NCBI GenBank assembly: GCA_030668875.1
Contig: DAOVER010000055.1
Coordinates: 1 to 19,459 of the forward strand
DNA length: 19,459 bases
Reading direction: 5' to 3'
DNA from: Candidatus Heimdallarchaeota archaeon
GTDB taxonomy: Archaea > Asgardarchaeota > Heimdallarchaeia > Heimdallarchaeales > Heimdallarchaeaceae
Within the stretch, counting starts at the first letter, position 1, and every line of letters starts with the position of its first letter. Both the position numbers and the translations under genes were made by a program. This document shows, piece by piece, positions 3,996 to 15,736 of this stretch. The notes beneath the pieces were generated by a model. The model made no database searches, was not told the DNA's origin, and saw only the letters and a program-made list of their open reading frames with translations.

Positions 3996-5271
3996 TTAAG
4001 CTAATACAAAATTAGTCAACCATTCCCATGAAAATAAACTTATTAACTCAAATATTTGTCTAACATTATCTGGATGAGCATCTGCTTTAATTTCCAAAAC
4101 GGCATCATTGTCTTCAGCTATGAATTCGAGTTTTGTCAAAATTTTATCCGTTTTAATTCTGTTAAAGTTCTTTGCTATATCATAAGCATGAAGTACATCA
4201 TCTTGAAGAAGCAAAGGTTCAACCATAAGTTCAATTGTATCATAGGGTTTAAACCAGCTAAATTCGTTGGATGATCCTACTGAAACTGGTTTCATCTCCA
4301 CTTTCAATTTAACAGCATTTCTTACAGTTCCAACAGCTTTAACAATTATTTTATCTTTATCCCACTTCCAAGTTATGGTATTAAACAAACCGGAATTGTG
4401 TGTCATCTCAGCTTGATTTTCTGATAAATCAAGTTTGTTAACCCGTGTACGCAGTTTATCTAGTACTTTCCCAATATCAACTGTTGCAGGTATTTTTTGA
4501 ACTTCTTCCGCTTCATAATCTCTTTCTCCTTCTGTTGAAGCAGGTATAAAGGAGATTACTTCATCAGCCGGTTTTACTACTGGAAATTTGTAATGTTCTT
4601 TCTTTAGTTTAGTAACAGGAATTAAGCTTTGCAAAATCTTGAAGCTCTCTTTTAATGATTTAATGTTTGTTTTTTTTGTTTCTAAGTAAATTGTAACAAG
4701 ATTATTACTTTCACTACTAATCTGACATTGTCTCAAATCACTCTTTTTTGCCAATAGAGGTAGAAGTTGATCATTTAAACTGAAGAAGTTCTCTGCATTT
4801 TGAAGAGGATTAACATTGATTAGTAGTGAATCATCAATATATGGGACACCAATTTCAAGGTTTTCTCCTCGGAATCTTTTATTGAAAAATCCTTCTTGTA
4901 TGATTGAACAAAACAGTGATTGAGGGAAAGAATCCATCCTAACTTCTGCTCTTAACACCAAGAAAGTTTGACTGTATTGCCCTCTACGTTCTACATTATA
5001 GCGGACATTGAGATATCGAAGGTTTCCCAGAGTTTCATTATGTGCTTGAATATCTGGGACACTTAAGCCTCCCCCTTGAGAAATAACATCTACTTCCATT
5101 TCTGGAAACTCCAACTGAATTAAGCCTGAAGCAAGCCCAGTGAATTTTTTTTTGTTTTCCTGATGTATAAATGATCATAATAATAACCGCAATGATGAAA
5201 AATACAATAGCTAAAATGATAGGCCATTCCAAGTATAATCTTCCTCCAAGAACAAATAGCTGAAGTAACAT
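3996..5271 (-). pseudogene. Single-pass membrane protein (about 424 aa when repaired) split by a frameshift in an A9 run
   Basis: ORF 5038..5286 (TM helix) and ORF 3996..5114 join in frame if the 9-T run at 5145-5153 is 8 long (..GKQKK-FTGLASGLIQLEFPEME..). May be a sequencing error. Start 5271 or 5286. Confidence 0.75.
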
Positions 5272-7345: not shown

Positions 7346-8317
7346 TTATTCAGCTTTGTCCTCCTTCTTTTTCATGGATTTCATCTTTTGAGCAGCTATA
7401 TTTTTCTGTATAAAATCAACTGAGGATTGAGCTGATTTGAAAGAAGCGGTATCAATTGACTTGAACTTTTCTTTCATTTCTTCAGGAGCCATATCATAGT
7501 ATTTACCCTCTACAGCATTAGATGCAGCCATCTTATCCTTCTTATCTCTTGTCTCAGTTCTTTGGAGATAGAAGTGGCTGATCATATGTATAACTTTACC
7601 TTCTCCATGTTCAAACTCTACTATTACTGGACTCTCTCCATATTTTTTCTTAAGTTCATTAGAATAAACGAGAACTTTAACATTCTTCTTGTCGAGTATC
7701 TCTATTGGGTAAGACGAACCTTCTAGCCACCAAAGTGGGTCTCCATCTGCTTCTAGAAAACCTTTTACTATAGGGTTATCTGGATCCTTAACTGTTATTC
7801 TTACAACTTCATCCCCGGTAGGCTGTTGATTATATTTTACTTTATCTGGAAATCCTTTCTCCAGAACATTCTGAAGAGCCCAATCAGTAGTAATCAATAA
7901 ACCACCTTCACGAACGAAAGTTACTAGCTTTCTTATTGCTTTATCACTTATATTTCCAGGACAATTGATGAAAACAGTTTGATCAGGTCGGTAATTTACT
8001 GTTTCTGCGGAATGCTCAGGGATAACTACATGAGGAATGTCTGCTAATCTAAGAACAAACTCACAGTTATCGTATCCTCCCTGAACAACTATGACATTAC
8101 TCTCATCTACCTCATCCAGAGCTACAGCCATTTCTGGTTCTTCCTCTCTCAGTTTTGTTTTTGTATACCAAGATGAAACCTCGTATGAGTTTTTCATTTG
8201 ATTGTATTTATCATCATCCTTATCCACGTTCTTAGGTACCCCTTTAGACTGGATATTTTGGAATGATTTTAAAACTTCTTCTTGACTGATATTTTTTTGT
8301 TTTTTTTCGTCATTCAT
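7346..8317 (-). CDS. Uncharacterised protein, probable class I glutamine amidotransferase-like fold
   Basis: 323-aa ORF; VFINCPG followed by FVREGGLLITTDWA, and GEGKVIHMISHF near the C-terminus, resemble GATase1-like beta/alpha repeats. Confidence 0.55.
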   Translation of the reverse strand: MNDEKKQKNISQEEVLKSFQNIQSKGVPKNVDKDDDKYNQMKNSYEVSSWYTKTKLREEEPEMAVALDEVDESNVIVVQGGYDNCEFVLRLADIPHVVIPEHSAETVNYRPDQTVFINCPGNISDKAIRKLVTFVREGGLLITTDWALQNVLEKGFPDKVKYNQQPTGDEVVRITVKDPDNPIVKGFLEADGDPLWWLEGSSYPIEILDKKNVKVLVYSNELKKKYGESPVIVEFEHGEGKVIHMISHFYLQRTETRDKKDKMAASNAVEGKYYDMAPEEMKEKFKSIDTASFKSAQSSVDFIQKNIAAQKMKSMKKKEDKAE

Positions 8318-9142: not shown

Positions 9143-9814
9143 TTATTTCAGTAATACCAAACTTCTAACCATTTCTGCACAATCTTCAATCAAATCAGAT
9201 GATAGCTCAATGTCTCTTATAGCGTGATCCAAAACGATTAATGCACCTGCAGGCACATCTTTTGTAGAATACGCTAATTCATATTTCAATTGTCTGTAGT
9301 TTTTATCGATTTCTGTTTCTATTTCACTTACTTTCTCAATCTTTTTCACTAGTTCTTCATGTTCAATAGAGAACATCGAATCGAATACCTTTGTAAAACC
9401 TTGAACTTCATCTACCAATAGCTCAAAATTGGACTTGAGAATCCGAATTATACTCTCAGGAAATTCTTGTTTTATTAATAGTAGAAGGTTATTTGTCCCT
9501 TGTTTTATTCTTCCTGCAGACTTATCTGCAAGTCTTATGAAGTTTATAAGATCTGTTCTCACATATTCTGGCATACGACCCTCTGAGAGCATATCAAGAA
9601 TATCTGCTTCAACTATATCAGCTGTCTTTTCTTCTTGATGAATCAAATCGTACATGTTTTGCGCCGCTTCTTCATCTTTATCTGCCCAAAAAGTATAGAA
9701 GTCCCTAGCCTTAGTAATACAGCTGTTAACAAGAATCAGATGTTCTCGAATCTTCTTTAAAACTTTAGATTCTCTCCTTTTGCTCAACCAGTATTTTAGC
9801 TCTTTATTGCTCAT
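9143..9814 (-). CDS. DUF47 / PhoU-like phosphate transport regulator
   Basis: All-helical; EEKTADIVEADI, RTDLINFIRLADK, IETEIDKNYR, SDLIEDCAE acidic repeats. GAGGTG SD precedes ATG 9814. Confidence 0.85.
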   Translation of the reverse strand: MSNKELKYWLSKRRESKVLKKIREHLILVNSCITKARDFYTFWADKDEEAAQNMYDLIHQEEKTADIVEADILDMLSEGRMPEYVRTDLINFIRLADKSAGRIKQGTNNLLLLIKQEFPESIIRILKSNFELLVDEVQGFTKVFDSMFSIEHEELVKKIEKVSEIETEIDKNYRQLKYELAYSTKDVPAGALIVLDHAIRDIELSSDLIEDCAEMVRSLVLLK

Positions 9815-9882
9815 CTTTACACCTCTCATTTCTATTAATTGTAAATTCTCTTTTCTCTAAATAACTAATATCCATTATTTGA

Positions 9883-10980
9883 TTAAATCTCTTTCTCATC
9901 TTTCTCATCCTCTTCAATGGGGAAAACTCTAAAATCACCTTTATCTGTAGCAAACAAAACTTTACTCCCTTCAGTTAAAGGAACATTTTTCCCAATCAAT
10001 TCTTTTGCTTTAATTACTTGATTAAATGCAATTAAATCAACATCATAAAACTCTCCCACACACTTTGTTTTGATAATCTTAGCTTCTATATTATTATCAT
10101 AAGTTATTTTCCCTCTCTCTGAAATAGAATGTATATCTACTAACTCTGCTGGAATGAGAGCAACTGCCTTTGTACCAGATATCAATTCAGTTTCAATCTC
10201 AATCTTGTTATCTTCAGCAATGAGAAAACTCTGGTTATTCTCCTGTAAAATTATTCCCTCTATTTCTGTAGTTTCACCTAAGAAGTTTGCAACATAGATT
10301 GAAACTGGATTATTGTAAACTTCTTCAGGAGTTCCAAATTGGACAATGGCTCCATCTTTAAACACGGCTATCTTATCAGCTACTCTCATAGCTTCTTGCG
10401 TATCATGTGTCGCATGGATACAAGTTAAACTAAGATCTTTCACTAAATTCCTAAGCTCAACTTGAAGTATCTCCCTAATTTTTGCATCTAGGGCACGTAA
10501 TGGATCATCCATCACCAGTAAGTTAGCATTTGAGACAATAGCCCGAGCTAAAGCAACTCTTTGTTTTTGACCACCGCTAATCTCATCAGGGAAATTCATT
10601 TCCTTGCCTGTTATATTAATTAATGAGAACATTTCACGAGCTATTTGTCTAGACTCAGATAGATCAAGATTCTTAACAGTAGGACCAAAAAGAACATTCG
10701 ATTCAACATTCATTCGTGGGAACAAGTTGTACTCTTCAAATACAAAACCAACATTTCTGTCTTCAGAGGGTTCCTTTGTTACATCCTCACCATCAAACAA
10801 AATTCTTCCTTTGGAGGGAGATAAAAGTCCTGCTACAAGGTACATAGTAGTGGTTTTTCCTGACCCAGTTGGTCCTAGTACAGCTAGATATTCACCATCC
10901 TCAATGGAGAGATTGATGTTTTCTACTCCTCTTCTTTTTCCATAATATTTGGTAATATCATCTAGTTCTACTTTTACCAT
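9883..10980 (-). CDS. ABC transporter ATP-binding subunit 2 (CysA/PotA/MalK-like, C-terminal TOBE region); Walker B Glu replaced by Asp
   Basis: GPTGSGKTT, ISGGQKQRVALARA, LLVMDDP, IHATHD. Confidence 0.93.
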   Translation of the reverse strand: MVKVELDDITKYYGKRRGVENINLSIEDGEYLAVLGPTGSGKTTTMYLVAGLLSPSKGRILFDGEDVTKEPSEDRNVGFVFEEYNLFPRMNVESNVLFGPTVKNLDLSESRQIAREMFSLINITGKEMNFPDEISGGQKQRVALARAIVSNANLLVMDDPLRALDAKIREILQVELRNLVKDLSLTCIHATHDTQEAMRVADKIAVFKDGAIVQFGTPEEVYNNPVSIYVANFLGETTEIEGIILQENNQSFLIAEDNKIEIETELISGTKAVALIPAELVDIHSISERGKITYDNNIEAKIIKTKCVGEFYDVDLIAFNQVIKAKELIGKNVPLTEGSKVLFATDKGDFRVFPIEEDEKDEKEI

Positions 10981-10983
10981 AAG

Positions 10984-12090
10984 TTACATCTCCAGTGCTG
11001 AAGCAACACCTTCTTCAGGATATTCAAAACATCTTGTTGAAGAAGGATCAATCACCAACCTCACCTTTTCATTTTCCTTGAAACGAATAGGATGTTTGGC
11101 GTGAATTTTGACTTCTACAATCTGTTGATTTTCAAGTTTAACTCTAACTCTTCTTAATAATCCTAGAAATTGATCTCTCACTACCACTCCTGGTAGGAAG
11201 TTTCCTGTTTTAATTTTATCTTCATATTTGTGTACTTTGAAAAACTCCCTTCGAACCGCTACAACCGCTCTTCTACCTCTTGAAATACCCATGTTTTTGA
11301 CTTTGATAGTTGATTGACCAACTCTTACTTCTGCAAAATCTTCCTTATCATTAAGAACGACAGATTCAAGAAAATCTGATTCACCAACGAAGAAAGATGT
11401 GAAGATATTGTTAGGTGTAAAGATCAAGTCAGATGCTGTTCCCAGTTGTACAAGTTTTCCTTTGTTCATCACAGCTACTTTATCACTAATTGTCAATGCT
11501 TCAGACTGATCATGGGTAACATGGATAGCTGTTAATCCCTCCTTCTTAACTAAGTTTCTAAGGAATACTTGAAATTCTTCTCTTATTTTTTGATCAAGTG
11601 CGCCTAGTGGCTCATCTAGAAGAAGAATTTTTGCTTCTGAAGCGATTACTCTAGCTAATGCTGTTTTTTGCCAGTCTGGTGCTGATAAGGAAGGAGGATA
11701 AAGTTCTGCTTTGTCATCAATTTGAACAGCTTTGAGAGCGTGATCTACTAATGAATCAATTTCACTGTTTTTTCTCCCTCTCACCCTGGGACCATAAGCA
11801 GCATTTTCCCATACAGTTAGATGTGGAAATATCGCAAAATGTTGGAAAACAAATCCAATATTTCTATCTCTTATACTTAAATTTTCAACGGATTTGTTAT
11901 CGAAATAAATATTACCTTGAGTAGGAAGGATAGTACCTGCTAGAAGACGTAAAGTTGTAGTTTTACCACATCCACTCGGACCAATTAAACTTACATACTC
12001 TCCATCTTCTATGATGAAACTAAGATCCTTAACGGCTTCCACTTTTCTACCGAAAATCTTCGTTACACTCTGAAGTCTTATCTCAGGCAT
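10984..12090 (-). CDS. ABC transporter ATP-binding subunit 1 (CysA/PotA/MalK-like, C-terminal TOBE region); degenerate signature motif
   Basis: GPSGCGKTT, LSAPDWQKTALARV, ILLLDEPLGALD, IHVTHD; overlaps the permease stop by 8 nt. Confidence 0.93.
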   Translation of the reverse strand: MPEIRLQSVTKIFGRKVEAVKDLSFIIEDGEYVSLIGPSGCGKTTTLRLLAGTILPTQGNIYFDNKSVENLSIRDRNIGFVFQHFAIFPHLTVWENAAYGPRVRGRKNSEIDSLVDHALKAVQIDDKAELYPPSLSAPDWQKTALARVIASEAKILLLDEPLGALDQKIREEFQVFLRNLVKKEGLTAIHVTHDQSEALTISDKVAVMNKGKLVQLGTASDLIFTPNNIFTSFFVGESDFLESVVLNDKEDFAEVRVGQSTIKVKNMGISRGRRAVVAVRREFFKVHKYEDKIKTGNFLPGVVVRDQFLGLLRRVRVKLENQQIVEVKIHAKHPIRFKENEKVRLVIDPSSTRCFEYPEEGVASALEM

Positions 12091-13813
12091 CTTTCTTCCT
12101 CCTCGTTACTAATCTCAACAATATTAGCATGACAAATGATATGATTATCAGTATCGTTGACGCAAATGCTGCAGCTGGAAACGTTGATGCTTCAAAGAAG
12201 TCAACAAGTAAGACAGGAATAGTTCGTTCTATTCCCATACAAATTATCGTTGCTCCTGTTTCACTCATCGAACGAGTGAATGTCATTATTGCAGCTGCAA
12301 TAAGTCCACTTTTCAAGAAGGGTAAAGTCACCGTTCTGAAAGCTGTAATTTTTGAAGCTCCAAAGGCTGCAGCAGCTTCATCATACATGGTAGAAATGGA
12401 ATCAAAGGACCCTATCAATGGTCTCACGCAATAAGAGTACGTGAAAGAGATATGGGCAATAACTATCATAGCAAAACCAGGTGATAGTATATGTAAACCA
12501 TTAGACCCCCAAAGGAAAAATATACTGAATCCTAATGCTGAGCTTGGTATAACTAACGGTATATCTATCAACCCATCTAGAAATCCTTTGACTTTGTTAT
12601 TTTTCATTTTGGAGATCATTAAGGCCATCGGAGTGGCTATTAACAAGTTTACAATCGTAACTATTAGTGCGATTTCTAATGACGTTACCAGTGCCGTCAT
12701 TATATCGTTGATTTTCTTATCAGGTGCTAGGAATACTTGATAAATCATCCCCGCTTCAAATTCGCCTGAGAAAGGAGACCCTCCCCACCATTGGAATAAG
12801 AAGACTATAACAAACAAAGCGGGAATAAAAACAAAAAGCAAGAAGAGTGCAATGGAAAATGTATTTCTTGTTCTAGTAACCTTCTTTGAGCTTAATTTTC
12901 TTTCAAATCTTGGAAAAACCTTGTTCCATGGAAGTCCTACCCTTCTTGCGAAAAGCCTAACAAAAGTAAGGAGTATTAAACTAATTATAATCAGTATAAA
13001 AGCAAGAAATGCTGTTGTTGGAATTTTTAGTCCTTTCATCCAACTAACTATGACTACAGGAGCTGTTTGATACACTCCACTAACTATTAATGTTGCTCCT
13101 GTTTCACCTAAAGATCTTGTAAAAGCTAAAACTGTTCCCGCCAACAGTCCTTCTTTAACCATAGGCAAAGATATCATTCGTGCAATAGTAAAAGGAGGTG
13201 CCCCCAATGTTTTTCCAGCTTTTTCTAAATTTAAGTCCAAATCTGCGATGATGCCTTTTATTGAACGTGTAACATAAGGAAAAGTGAAAGCAACATGGGC
13301 AAAAATTATGAGTAGTGTACCTTGTGAAGCGAAACCTACTTGAGAGTTGTACAATCTTGAAATACCATTATTTGTTCCCCAAAAAAGATAGACAGAGAAA
13401 CCTAAAGCACTAGTAGGAACAGCCATTGGTAAGTCCACCATTGTGTCGAGAATACTCTTTCCTTTGAATTCGTATCTGGCCAGAATCCAAGCCATAGGAA
13501 CGCCTACAACTATATCAAATACAGTTACAATAGCAGCAATTTCGAATGACAAACCAATAGATCTTAACATAGAAAGAAAAGCTTCATTTCCTAAAATTGG
13601 GTCATTGAAGACAGTTTCATTAATATCACCCCAACTGACAATTATCTGAAAAAGCAAGTAAAGTATAGGCCCTAAGACAATTAGGATAAATATACCAACT
13701 GTCACTGCTTTACCAGCTGAAAGGACGGTATCTTTCGACAACCATTTTTCGGAAGCAAGTAAACTTCTTCTGAATTTGACTTCCAAATCAGGTTTCTCCT
13801 CTCCAGCTGACAT
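12083..13813 (-). CDS. ABC permease with two fused TMDs (CysT/CysW/ModB/WtpB-like)
   Basis: Internal duplication: MAVPTSALG / LVIPSSALG, FAHVAFTFPY / IAHISFTYSY, EKAGKTLGA / DEAAAAFGA (EAA loops), FTRSLGETGAT / FTRSMSETGAT. Confidence 0.92.
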   Translation of the reverse strand: MSAGEEKPDLEVKFRRSLLASEKWLSKDTVLSAGKAVTVGIFILIVLGPILYLLFQIIVSWGDINETVFNDPILGNEAFLSMLRSIGLSFEIAAIVTVFDIVVGVPMAWILARYEFKGKSILDTMVDLPMAVPTSALGFSVYLFWGTNNGISRLYNSQVGFASQGTLLIIFAHVAFTFPYVTRSIKGIIADLDLNLEKAGKTLGAPPFTIARMISLPMVKEGLLAGTVLAFTRSLGETGATLIVSGVYQTAPVVIVSWMKGLKIPTTAFLAFILIIISLILLTFVRLFARRVGLPWNKVFPRFERKLSSKKVTRTRNTFSIALFLLFVFIPALFVIVFLFQWWGGSPFSGEFEAGMIYQVFLAPDKKINDIMTALVTSLEIALIVTIVNLLIATPMALMISKMKNNKVKGFLDGLIDIPLVIPSSALGFSIFFLWGSNGLHILSPGFAMIVIAHISFTYSYCVRPLIGSFDSISTMYDEAAAAFGASKITAFRTVTLPFLKSGLIAAAIMTFTRSMSETGATIICMGIERTIPVLLVDFFEASTFPAAAFASTILIIISFVMLILLRLVTRRKKDA

Positions 13814-15064
13814 TTATTTTCTCCTCCTTCGTTTGTAAATAACTGAAAGGATTACTAGTGATGTAAGCATAATAGGAACCAGTAGAACAGGATCTAACCC
13901 TACTTGCCAGTATTCAGCATCCTCATTCTTCTCTATTGTTGTTGCTCTTGTCTTTAACCACAGATCTGGTATTCTATCCAGAACTTCTCCATCAGTGGGT
14001 ACGTTAAAACGAGGTATAGAAATGTTTAACTGAACACCATTTTCAGGTTTGAATATTTTTTCCATTTCCGCAACTACGTCAGGGTCGTCTTTAATTGTCT
14101 CATTACCAGGACGAAAACCAAATGGAATAGACACCTTTTGTATCTCTTTACTCATTAAGAAGGTTTCAAATTCAGAAGCTGCAAAAGATTCATCTGGAGT
14201 TACCCATGAAGCATTTAAAATAACTATGGGATGGTCACTCCACAGTGTTCCTTCTTCCGGGTAAACTGCGACTATATTATCTCCCCATTTGGCAAAAGCT
14301 TCTCCATCTTTTGCTGTTTCAATAATCAGGTTCTCATATAAAATTATAACATTGATAGCTGACGGTCCTAGCTGAACTGCCTGTTTTGCAAGAAAACCTG
14401 TTGAAGTTCCATAAAGAACTGCTTTAGATTCTACTTTTTCAAGCCAATCTTGTATAACTACATTTTTTAAATCAGCTAATTCAATTTCATCTGGAGATTT
14501 CCCACTTGCACCAGTAATCTCCAGTAAAACAGCCATAAAACCTGAATTTGATTCTTGAGCTGAGGTGTGAGCTAATTTTAAATTATCTTCAGCTAAATCA
14601 TATAAATCAGAAAGTGAGGTGAAGTTGTTTTCATCACGAAAACTCTGCCATGTGGCAAGAACTATTGGTGAAGCTACTAGAGATTTAATTTGGTTTAAGT
14701 CTAAAACTGATCCCCCAAACTTCTTTTCCCACGCCCAATCGAATAATGGTATCCATACATTTGCTGCGGGACTCCATATGGTAGGCTTACTTTCTCCAGA
14801 TAGGATTGATAACATAGATGTTCTCGTACCCTGAACTTCAAACTGGAGTCTAACAGTTTTACCAGGATTCCTTTCAGCAAACCATTCAGGAAAATCGGGA
14901 GCAATAGAGTTTATCCAACCTTTTTTCTCACTCGTGTAAAGAACGTTCAAAACAATTTCATCTTTATCTCCTCTAAATTGAGCTTGACGTATAATATCAA
15001 GAGCAATTAATGATGAGATAAGTAGTACTACGGCAATAATTGTTGGAAGTTTTGATTTCCCCAA
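13814..15064 (-). CDS. Extracellular substrate-binding protein with N- and C-terminal hydrophobic anchors
   Basis: Motifs YTSEK, PTIWSPA, SPIVLATW, SNSG, YGTSTGF, YPEEGTLWSDHP, GFRP; TTG start after AAGGGGA; C-terminal TM helix plus KRRRRK. Confidence 0.88.
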   Translation of the reverse strand: MGKSKLPTIIAVVLLISSLIALDIIRQAQFRGDKDEIVLNVLYTSEKKGWINSIAPDFPEWFAERNPGKTVRLQFEVQGTRTSMLSILSGESKPTIWSPAANVWIPLFDWAWEKKFGGSVLDLNQIKSLVASPIVLATWQSFRDENNFTSLSDLYDLAEDNLKLAHTSAQESNSGFMAVLLEITGASGKSPDEIELADLKNVVIQDWLEKVESKAVLYGTSTGFLAKQAVQLGPSAINVIILYENLIIETAKDGEAFAKWGDNIVAVYPEEGTLWSDHPIVILNASWVTPDESFAASEFETFLMSKEIQKVSIPFGFRPGNETIKDDPDVVAEMEKIFKPENGVQLNISIPRFNVPTDGEVLDRIPDLWLKTRATTIEKNEDAEYWQVGLDPVLLVPIMLTSLVILSVIYKRRRRK

Positions 15065-15267: not shown

Positions 15268-15736
15268 ATGAAAGCTATCCTAACTTCAGTTTACGACAGA
15301 CAAACAAATCCATTGTACTGTAGACTCTTTAGTCGAGGTCTATCAATCCACATAAAAATTGGCAGTCAGCAAATTTTGATGGATTTTGGAATGATTGGTT
15401 CAGTTTTAGTAAGAAATATGAAAAAGCTGGAAATTGATCCTAATAAGATTACAAAAGCCCTTTTATCACACGGACATGCAGATCATATTTGGGGATTGAA
15501 GTCTTTTCTTAATCTAAGGAATAATTCAAGAAAACTTCCATTATATCTTCATGATGTCTATTTCAAGAGAAAAACTTGTAAGAATTGTTGATTTTTTGAA
15601 GGAGAAATACAGTGAAACTGAATTCTATCTTAATCACACGATTAGTAGATTAGCATGGGTTACCTTAAGAAAAAAACTTGGTGAGGAAAAAATTCATCAT
15701 TTTAAAATGGGGAAAAAAATTATTTTTGATTGTTAA
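15268..15736 (+). pseudogene. MBL-fold metallo-hydrolase (methanopterin-synthesis-like MBL family) with an internal deletion and frame change
   Basis: N-terminal part RGLSIHI..ILMDFG..NMKKLEIDP..LLSHGHADHIWGL; C-terminal-like part (REKLVRIVDFLKEK..LNH..LGEEK..FKMGKKI) in another frame; the central region expected for the family is absent. Confidence 0.7.

Follow-up and report, generated by a model that had tools for sequence, protein, structure and literature searches.

What is the role of the gene at positions 13814..15064 (minus strand) of the window, that is, the whole stretch of 19,459 nucleotides of archaeal DNA analysed here? The first-pass annotation had noticed, in the encoded substrate-binding protein (SBP), a series of motifs taken to mark bacterial SBP domains fused or adjacent to vWA domains and devoid of permeases, and had noticed next to the gene what appeared to be a complete ABC importer; the locus thus raises the question whether the protein serves in transport and, if so, which ligand it binds. 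The source assembly (G000; 3.23 Mb, 92% complete) belongs to the Heimdallarchaeaceae, a family of the Asgard archaea.

The SBP gene, which encodes 416 amino acids from a TTG start (as seen from its translation, Pfam and an AF2 model), is the first of five tightly packed genes in a minus-strand operon with the order SBP, fused permease, ATPase 1, ATPase 2 and PhoU_div; the genes are separated by 0, 3 and 53 bases or, in one case, overlap by 8. With the stop codon of the SBP gene at 13814-13816 and the permease start at 13813, the first of these gaps is zero. The fused double permease (12083..13813, minus strand; 576 aa) has two BPD_transp_1 halves according to Pfam, NCBIfam and matches to plasmid-borne genes; its gene shares 8 bases with that of ATPase 1 (10984..12090, minus strand; 368 aa with a TOBE_2 tail), which is followed after 3 bases by the gene for ATPase 2 (9883..10980, minus strand; 365 aa), both ATPases being assigned by Pfam and motif comparison. 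The last gene, 53 bases further on, encodes a PhoU_div/DUF47 protein (9143..9829, minus strand; 228 aa), recognised by Pfam and motifs and analysed by co-folding. Coordinates and Pfam therefore bear out the initial statement that the SBP gene abuts a double permease and two ATPases, and the arrangement, an SBP gene adjoining a permease with EAA-type coupling loops and ABC ATPases, is that of a type-I ABC importer.

Elsewhere in the window, a 107-aa ORF at 15268-15591 (plus strand) matches only positions 34-70 of a metallo-beta-lactamase model. At the syntenic locus L001, full genes for a Lactamase_B protein (285 aa) and for a Peptidase_M55 lie between those for OMP decarboxylase and the SBP; from the partial match and these full genes, the ORF looks like a deletion remnant. 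Three further ORFs, all on the minus strand, have no Pfam match at E<=0.001 (2-2176, 3996-5114 and 7346-8317; 725+, 372 and 323 aa, respectively).

Every motif listed at the outset is found in the SBP translation: SEKKGW (residues 45-50), WSPA (97-100), SPIVLATW (132-139), SNSG (172-175), YGTSTGF (218-224), YPEEGTLWSDHP (268-279), GFRP (316-319) and DLWLKTRA (367-374). They are spread over a two-lobe binding domain (residues 36-376; 13937..14959, minus strand), which was delimited by alignment, the AF2 model (pLDDT 92.6) and fold comparison and is flanked by a hydrophobic segment on either side. The N-terminal one (residues ~7-25; 14990..15046, minus strand; within helix 5-35 of the model) is an anchor or an uncleaved signal, and its sequence contains no lipobox Cys. 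As had been described, DLWLKTRA is followed by a short linker (17 residues) and a hydrophobic TM helix (~392-410), after which comes KRRRRK; helix and stop-transfer tail together occupy residues ~391-416 (13817..13894, minus strand; helix 392-415 of the model). Homologues with 90-93% identity are of the same length as the query; the C-terminal tail is covered only by matches from families f1 and f2, those from other lineages ending near residue 376.

Of the Pfam models, only SBP_bac_11 (PF13531; 43.5 bits) and SBP_bac_8 match the SBP; the former does so above its gathering threshold and over the full model, and the protein is of the SBP_bac_11 type with a cluster-D fold. No VWA match is present and the protein ends in its TM helix, in line with the reported lack of a vWA domain. 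A search of NCBIfam (E<=0.01) returned no model for the SBP, those for ModA, WtpA, PstS and Sbp included, and a PDB sequence search no chain at E<=10. Thus, the SBP is matched neither by the PstS models (PF12849, TIGR00975, TIGR02136) nor by those for ModA and WtpA (TIGR01256, TIGR03730); TIGR03730 does match other genes in 17 of 200 sampled Asgard genomes, but never the SBP, and the Sbp/CysP equivalog TIGR00971 matches neither the SBP nor anything else in these 200 genomes, G000 among them. By the NCBIfam and PDB searches, then, the nearest homologues are not ordinary ModA, WtpA, AfuA or PotD proteins in standard operons.

A profile of the SBP family does reach solved structures, the best matches being sulfate-binding proteins: 1SBP (E 2e-6), the Sbp of X. 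citri (2.6e-5) and SubI (1.4e-3), with an identity of the SBP to Sbp of 12-16%. In the profile alignment Y243-E-N falls on W192-E-N of Sbp, T222 on A173, and the helix cap at G79 on the GGSGKQ of Sbp; judged from this alignment, an anion site made of helix N-termini appears to be conserved between the two proteins. By fold comparison, structural neighbours within 3 Z units include TbpA (thiamin), PhnS (2-AEP), AfuA (sugar phosphates), P5PA and PotD.

How the SBP relates to the vWA proteins was addressed with 1,118 homologues (E<=1e-3) from a search of cluster representatives; a locus search with the query only had returned just close Heimdallarchaeota relatives. That the motif series marks SBPs fused to vWA domains is borne out, VWA being present in 59 of the 150 best representatives. 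The best matches outside the archaeal stand-alone proteins have 30-38% identity and are mostly 550-650 aa long, with SBP_bac_11 followed by VWA; other relatives are fused to a Ser/Thr kinase, to OpuAC or SBP_bac_3 plus VWA, to TIR plus VWA, or to HEAT repeats. Several archaeal homologues carry the JGI label "Ca-activated chloride channel family protein", a vWA-type name. One bacterial protein of the vWA-associated clade (P0230) has an alpha-carbonic anhydrase N-terminal to the SBP domain, which hints at an anion theme, perhaps bicarbonate-like, for the bacterial sensors.

When 138 SBP domains were placed in a maximum likelihood tree (quick IQ-TREE search under LG+G4, midpoint-rooted only for display), three clades emerged: one that contains all 53 of the vWA forms, a second with kinase and other N-terminally extended forms, and a third with 27 members, the query among them, which are all stand-alone and are separated by a branch with an SH-aLRT of 100; Asgard and Bathyarchaeia names occur in it. 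The query had been taken for a transport-competent member of the vWA clade. Its link to an importer and its kinship with the vWA family stand, but it belongs to this separate archaeal clade, which, according to the sequence tree, is sister to the vWA-associated one; the distinct clade of 27 stand-alone proteins also rules out that the query is a vWA-clade member which lost its vWA domain.

The motifs are invariant or nearly so across the 138 homologues. At their core positions, conservation amounts to 85-100% in the archaeal clade and, for the most part, to 70-100% in the clades with vWA or kinase fusions, so that by sequence comparison the series is not due to chance. Conserved to 63-100% in the three clades are S45, E46, K47, W50, S98, P99, A100, W139, H166 and T167 and likewise SNSG, E212, S221, T222, G223, Y243, E244, Y268, D277, H278 and R318; the sharing of these residues suggests a common, or at least a similar, ligand throughout, and the ligand of the archaeal importer would then probably carry over to the bacterial sensors. 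It is in this sense that the locus, as had been proposed, offers a route to the ligand, the presumed binding residues being common to archaeal and bacterial clades.

Five genomic contexts of bacterial vWA forms were inspected. The expectation that these forms lack permeases agrees with what was seen, a permease or ATPase gene being present in none of the five; TelA or XpaC, which had been expected close by, did not occur in any of them either, though so small a sample does not speak against an association. Genes for PspA and a Ser/Thr kinase were encountered there, as were pstS together with a CHAD protein and, repeatedly, a helical protein of ~265 aa. The latter, without Pfam match, is encoded 3' of the SBP+vWA gene in several unrelated bacteria (L014:4993-5811, L077:7757-8572, L078:7556-8350) and is probably the real partner of the vWA forms. 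On a metagenome contig (L020:3735-9019), two stand-alone SBPs of the family, which fall on the vWA-clade side of the tree, are encoded in tandem; an AOR gene lies 1 kb downstream of them, and an NMT1-type ABC system adjoins them. Literature searches brought up nothing about the SBP clade, SBP+vWA fusions, or a connection of DUF47 proteins with ABC importers.

For the archaeal proteins, association with a transporter is the rule. Among 200 Asgard genomes with a completeness of at least 80%, 55 encode the SBP, all but one of them in a single copy. Of 24 loci examined (SBP identity 36-100%), one (L062) is cut at the contig end; the 23 informative ones derive from Asgard genomes and metagenome contigs, and the neighbourhood comparison proposed earlier shows the SBP gene adjoining permease genes in all of them. 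The query is thus not exceptional in having a transporter, as had been supposed. One fused permease is encoded in 22 of the 23 loci and two ATPases are as well, the exception being in either case L058, where the permease is encoded by two separate genes and no ATPase gene is adjacent. PhoU_div is adjacent in 20 loci and a PhoU-type gene in 21; at L059 a divergent regulator combines AbrB/MazE with two PhoU domains. All-against-all clustering of the neighbours in the 23 loci revealed no further conserved partner. The SBP gene hence encodes the membrane-tethered binding subunit of a complete and conserved archaeal ABC importer.

The closest relatives of the permease are CysT, CysW and ModB, and both of its halves contain an FTRS[LM][GS]ETGAT coupling loop. 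Its best matches among 72,556 plasmids are all CysT or CysW, one of them spanning adjacent cysT and cysW genes. With the PstC model it reaches 63 bits (cut-off 196) and with the ModB model 216 bits, the latter being the sum of two halves; scores with the full-length ThiP and PhnU2 models are far below the cut-offs.

Walker A and the H-loop are intact in both ATPases. ATPase 1 combines a canonical Walker A and Walker B (DEP) with a degenerate signature (LSAPDWQK); ATPase 2 has a canonical signature (ISGGQKQR) and a DDP Walker B that has another residue in place of the catalytic Glu; in the window and its relatives this motif reads DDP or DQP instead of DEP. As these two deviations, one in each ATPase, fall into the same composite site, the pair has one consensus and one degenerate ATP site, which is, to our knowledge, unusual among type-I importers. 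A degenerate signature in one ATPase (LSAPDWQK, LSAPELQK, FGNPGLQK or WGNGDLQR) is found in all 22 loci with both genes, in the permease-proximal ATPase 1 in 21 of them and in the distal one at L059; the partner retains xSGG[QM]xQR.

The PhoU_div protein matches PF01865 with 58.2 bits (cut-off 24.4) and scores 44.9 on TIGR00153, below the cut-off of 104.3; three ExxxD-type motifs are kept. Co-folding of ATPase 1, ATPase 2 and PhoU_div gave a score of 0.57 (best control 0.00), a mark that 58 of 80 solved complexes attained, as did 2 of 110 mismatched pairs, with marks of 0.60 or below accounting for only 7 of the 80 solved complexes and for both mismatches; contact agreement between runs was at least 81% and the pLDDT of the partner at least 82. 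The model lends weak support to binding of PhoU_div to the ATPase pair, and the protein is a putative regulator of the importer.

Which anion is imported can be approached by asking what the system occurs with. A phosphate-class anion appears the likeliest substrate, with a probability of roughly 0.45, and the argument comes from functional context. In five loci of family f13 the operon is directly followed by PhoU_div-like, PHO4 and PhoU_div genes; in two genomes of different families (G189 and G147) a canonical pstS/CA-pstB-phoU operon is convergent and adjacent; and one bacterial member of the vWA clade lies near pstS and the gene for a CHAD protein. The system is present in 21 of the 112 Asgard genomes with PstC versus 34 of the 88 without (odds ratio 0.37, with related genomes counted as independent) and in 10 of the 18 that have neither PstC nor PHO4. 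The closed genomes G026 and G195 have the system and lack PstC; within family f2, one genus (four genomes) has Pst without the system, two genera have the system without Pst, and one has both. In all four genomes of family f11 and in G099, no PstC, PstB above cut-off, PHO4 or Na/Pi cotransporter was found, and the system is the only recognisable phosphate-uptake candidate of these five genomes; ATP sulfurylase is missing as well in 4 of the 5.

Against phosphate speaks that Pst is also encoded in 21 and PHO4 in 42 of the 55 system-bearing genomes, which means that the system is not a simple replacement; further, the f11 loci are atypical (split permease, no adjacent ATPase or PhoU_div), the nearest characterised proteins by sequence and fold are sulfate-binding proteins rather than PstS, and the best plasmid matches of the permease are to sulfate systems only. 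Pst, PHO4 and the system are found together in many genomes, and G000 is one of them, with a PhoU_div+PHO4 pair elsewhere and, on another contig, a real PstS. The latter belongs to a full pstS-pstCA(fused)-pstB-phoU operon on contig C74 (L011:5220-9952), which may have been acquired recently or stem from erroneous binning; PstC was present in 0 of 16 other sampled genomes of the genus. A promoter motif common to the importer operon, pstS and PhoU_div-PHO4 in G000 was looked for, but the compared upstream regions share only AT-rich low-complexity 12-mers.

The homologies just mentioned would be readily explained if the system were an Asgard sulfate/thiosulfate importer, i.e., a divergent CysP/Sbp-CysTW-CysA feeding ATP sulfurylase, with PhoU_div as a general modulator of anion transporters. 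In its favour, canonical Sbp was found in 0 of 200 Asgard genomes, of which 97 have ATP sulfurylase, and SulP in 0 of 25 genomes of the window's family; moreover, the system co-occurs with ATP sulfurylase (34 of 55 genomes with the system versus 63 of 145 without; odds ratio 2.1), the best PDB profile matches are 1SBP, X. citri Sbp and SubI, and the permease resembles CysT and CysW, including the plasmid match across both adjacent genes. However, 21 of the 55 system-bearing genomes lack ATP sulfurylase, including the closed G195, three of the four from f11 and G099, and 63 genomes with the enzyme are without the system; PhoU-type genes accompany it in 21 of 23 loci, with Pst or PHO4 alongside in seven, and we know of no sulfate ABC operons linked to PhoU-type genes. 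Tungstate, molybdate and vanadate systems also have permeases of the SulT-type family, so homology does not fix the anion. An argument from absent sulfate assimilation in G000 was dropped: the genome has no ATP sulfurylase, but 12 of 16 genomes of its genus do, and its absence is therefore probably an assembly gap. Because conserved functional context was given more weight than remote homology, phosphate is ranked above sulfate, which we consider rather unlikely.

Import of tungstate or molybdate for AOR-family enzymes, by a fourth type of Mo/W binding protein, comes to mind as G000 has eight AFOR_N genes and neither a ModA, a WtpA nor a TupA-type SBP, as the permease halves together reach 216 bits on ModB, and as a distant homologue (P0148) is encoded 1 kb from an AOR gene. 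Yet the ModB score only arises by summing both halves, and 9 of the 17 WtpA-positive genomes also have the system, which is thus not complementary to WtpA; the window's genus and g2 are without MoaC, G000 also without MoeA_N, and g3 has MoaC, WtpA and the system, so its presence does not follow pterin-cofactor synthesis. Weakened by the co-occurrence with WtpA and by genera without MoaC, this possibility seems very improbable. Less so, though still quite unlikely, is a ligand other than a simple oxyanion, that is, a larger phospho-compound, an anion-metal complex or another small molecule, for which sugar phosphate, phosphonate, pyrophosphate, thiamin, polyamine and bicarbonate are candidates. 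It would fit the structural proximity of TbpA, PhnS, AfuA, P5PA and PotD, the fused double permease typical of AfuB/ThiP/PhnU2 systems, the invariant aromatic and charged residues (W50, W139, Y268, W287, K47, H166, H278, E46, E212) and the carbonic anhydrase fusion of one bacterial relative, but not the four Ser/Thr/Gly-rich helix caps, which are typical of small oxyanion sites; neighbour clustering uncovered no catabolic or modifying enzyme conserved beside the operon, and the permease falls far short of the ThiP and PhnU2 models.

The AFOR_N genes of G000 (e.g., C31:23955-24551, C33:1525-2124 and C19:31568-32164) are noted here in their own right: a search of the whole genome found no MoaC, MoeA_N, WtpA, ModA or TupA-type gene, and MoaC is also missing from two more genomes of the genus and from one of g2; in the sister genus g3, the MoaC and WtpA genes lie close together. 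Organisms rich in AOR and without MoaC could scavenge the cofactor or employ a non-standard pterin pathway.

With phosphate as the preferred substrate, a mechanism can be proposed. The SBP would act as the extracellular binding subunit of a type-I importer, tethered to the membrane at both ends, and would take up a small tetrahedral oxyanion in the cleft between its two lobes, the lining of which, from the alignment, may comprise SEK, the G79 cap, SNSG, STG, Y243, H166, H278 and D277. The anion would be handed to the permease, and transport would be powered by an asymmetric ATPase heterodimer with one consensus and one degenerate ATP site; the PhoU-like DUF47 protein would probably restrain the importer by binding the ATPases, by analogy to PhoU with PstB. 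Inorganic phosphate or a close phosphorus oxyanion would be the likeliest substrate, making the system a non-PstS analogue of Pst. In sister bacterial clades the same binding domain, fused to vWA, Ser/Thr-kinase or other modules, would act as a sensor; presumably, these fusion proteins function in sensing and not in transport. Taken as a whole, the proposal of a previously unrecognised non-PstS phosphate importer, which replaces or supplements Pst and is the sole route in some Asgard archaea, with the bacterial SBP+vWA and SBP+kinase proteins as phosphate sensors, is possible but doubtful.

Irrespective of the anion, an uncharacterised binding-protein subfamily is defined, for which there is neither an NCBIfam model nor a sequence-matched solved structure and which comprises an archaeal clade linked to transporters and bacterial clades of presumed sensors. 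As the presumed binding residues are common to the clades, a single screen of ligands against the soluble archaeal domain could assign a signal to many bacterial vWA- and kinase-linked proteins; if the phosphate reading is true, hundreds of SBP+vWA and SBP+kinase proteins in bacteria would be extracytoplasmic phosphate (oxyanion) sensors. The system is relevant to the acquisition of phosphate or sulfate by Asgard archaea, of which many are without Pst, and it is an example from nature of a type-I importer that combines a conserved degenerate ATP site with a DUF47 partner.

Compared with known systems, the importer resembles PstSCAB-PhoU in that the genes run from SBP over two permease domains and ATPase(s) to a PhoU-type regulator, in lying beside real pst-phoU and PHO4 genes in several genomes, and in its tendency to occur where Pst is missing; it differs in that its SBP lies outside the PstS/PBP_like_2 family, its ATPases are PotA/CysA-like with TOBE tails rather than PstB, and its regulator is PhoU_div (DUF47) rather than PhoU. 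Sbp/CysP-CysT-CysW-CysA provides the nearest solved relatives of the SBP by profile and fold, with aligning helix-cap positions at the anion site, the nearest relatives of the permease halves (CysT/CysW), and ATPases likewise equipped with a C-terminal regulatory domain. In the query system, however, a Tyr (Y243) aligns with the sulfate-binding Trp192, a single polypeptide contains both permease domains, the SBP is held in the membrane by both of its ends, two dissimilar ATPases share one degenerate site and are accompanied by a PhoU_div protein, and genomes without ATP sulfurylase have the system too. With WtpABC/ModABC it shares the SBP_bac_11 superfamily and ModB/WtpB-like permease halves, but its SBP matches neither the WtpA nor the ModA model, and the system co-occurs with genuine WtpA and is present in genomes without MoaC. 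Lastly, the bacterial SBP+vWA and Ser/Thr-kinase+SBP fusions differ from the query in carrying vWA, kinase, TIR, HEAT, alpha-carbonic anhydrase or extra SBP domains, in having no permease or ATPase in any of the contexts seen, and in forming separate clades of the tree; what they have in common with it is the SBP subfamily (27-38% identity), the motif series and the presumed binding residues.
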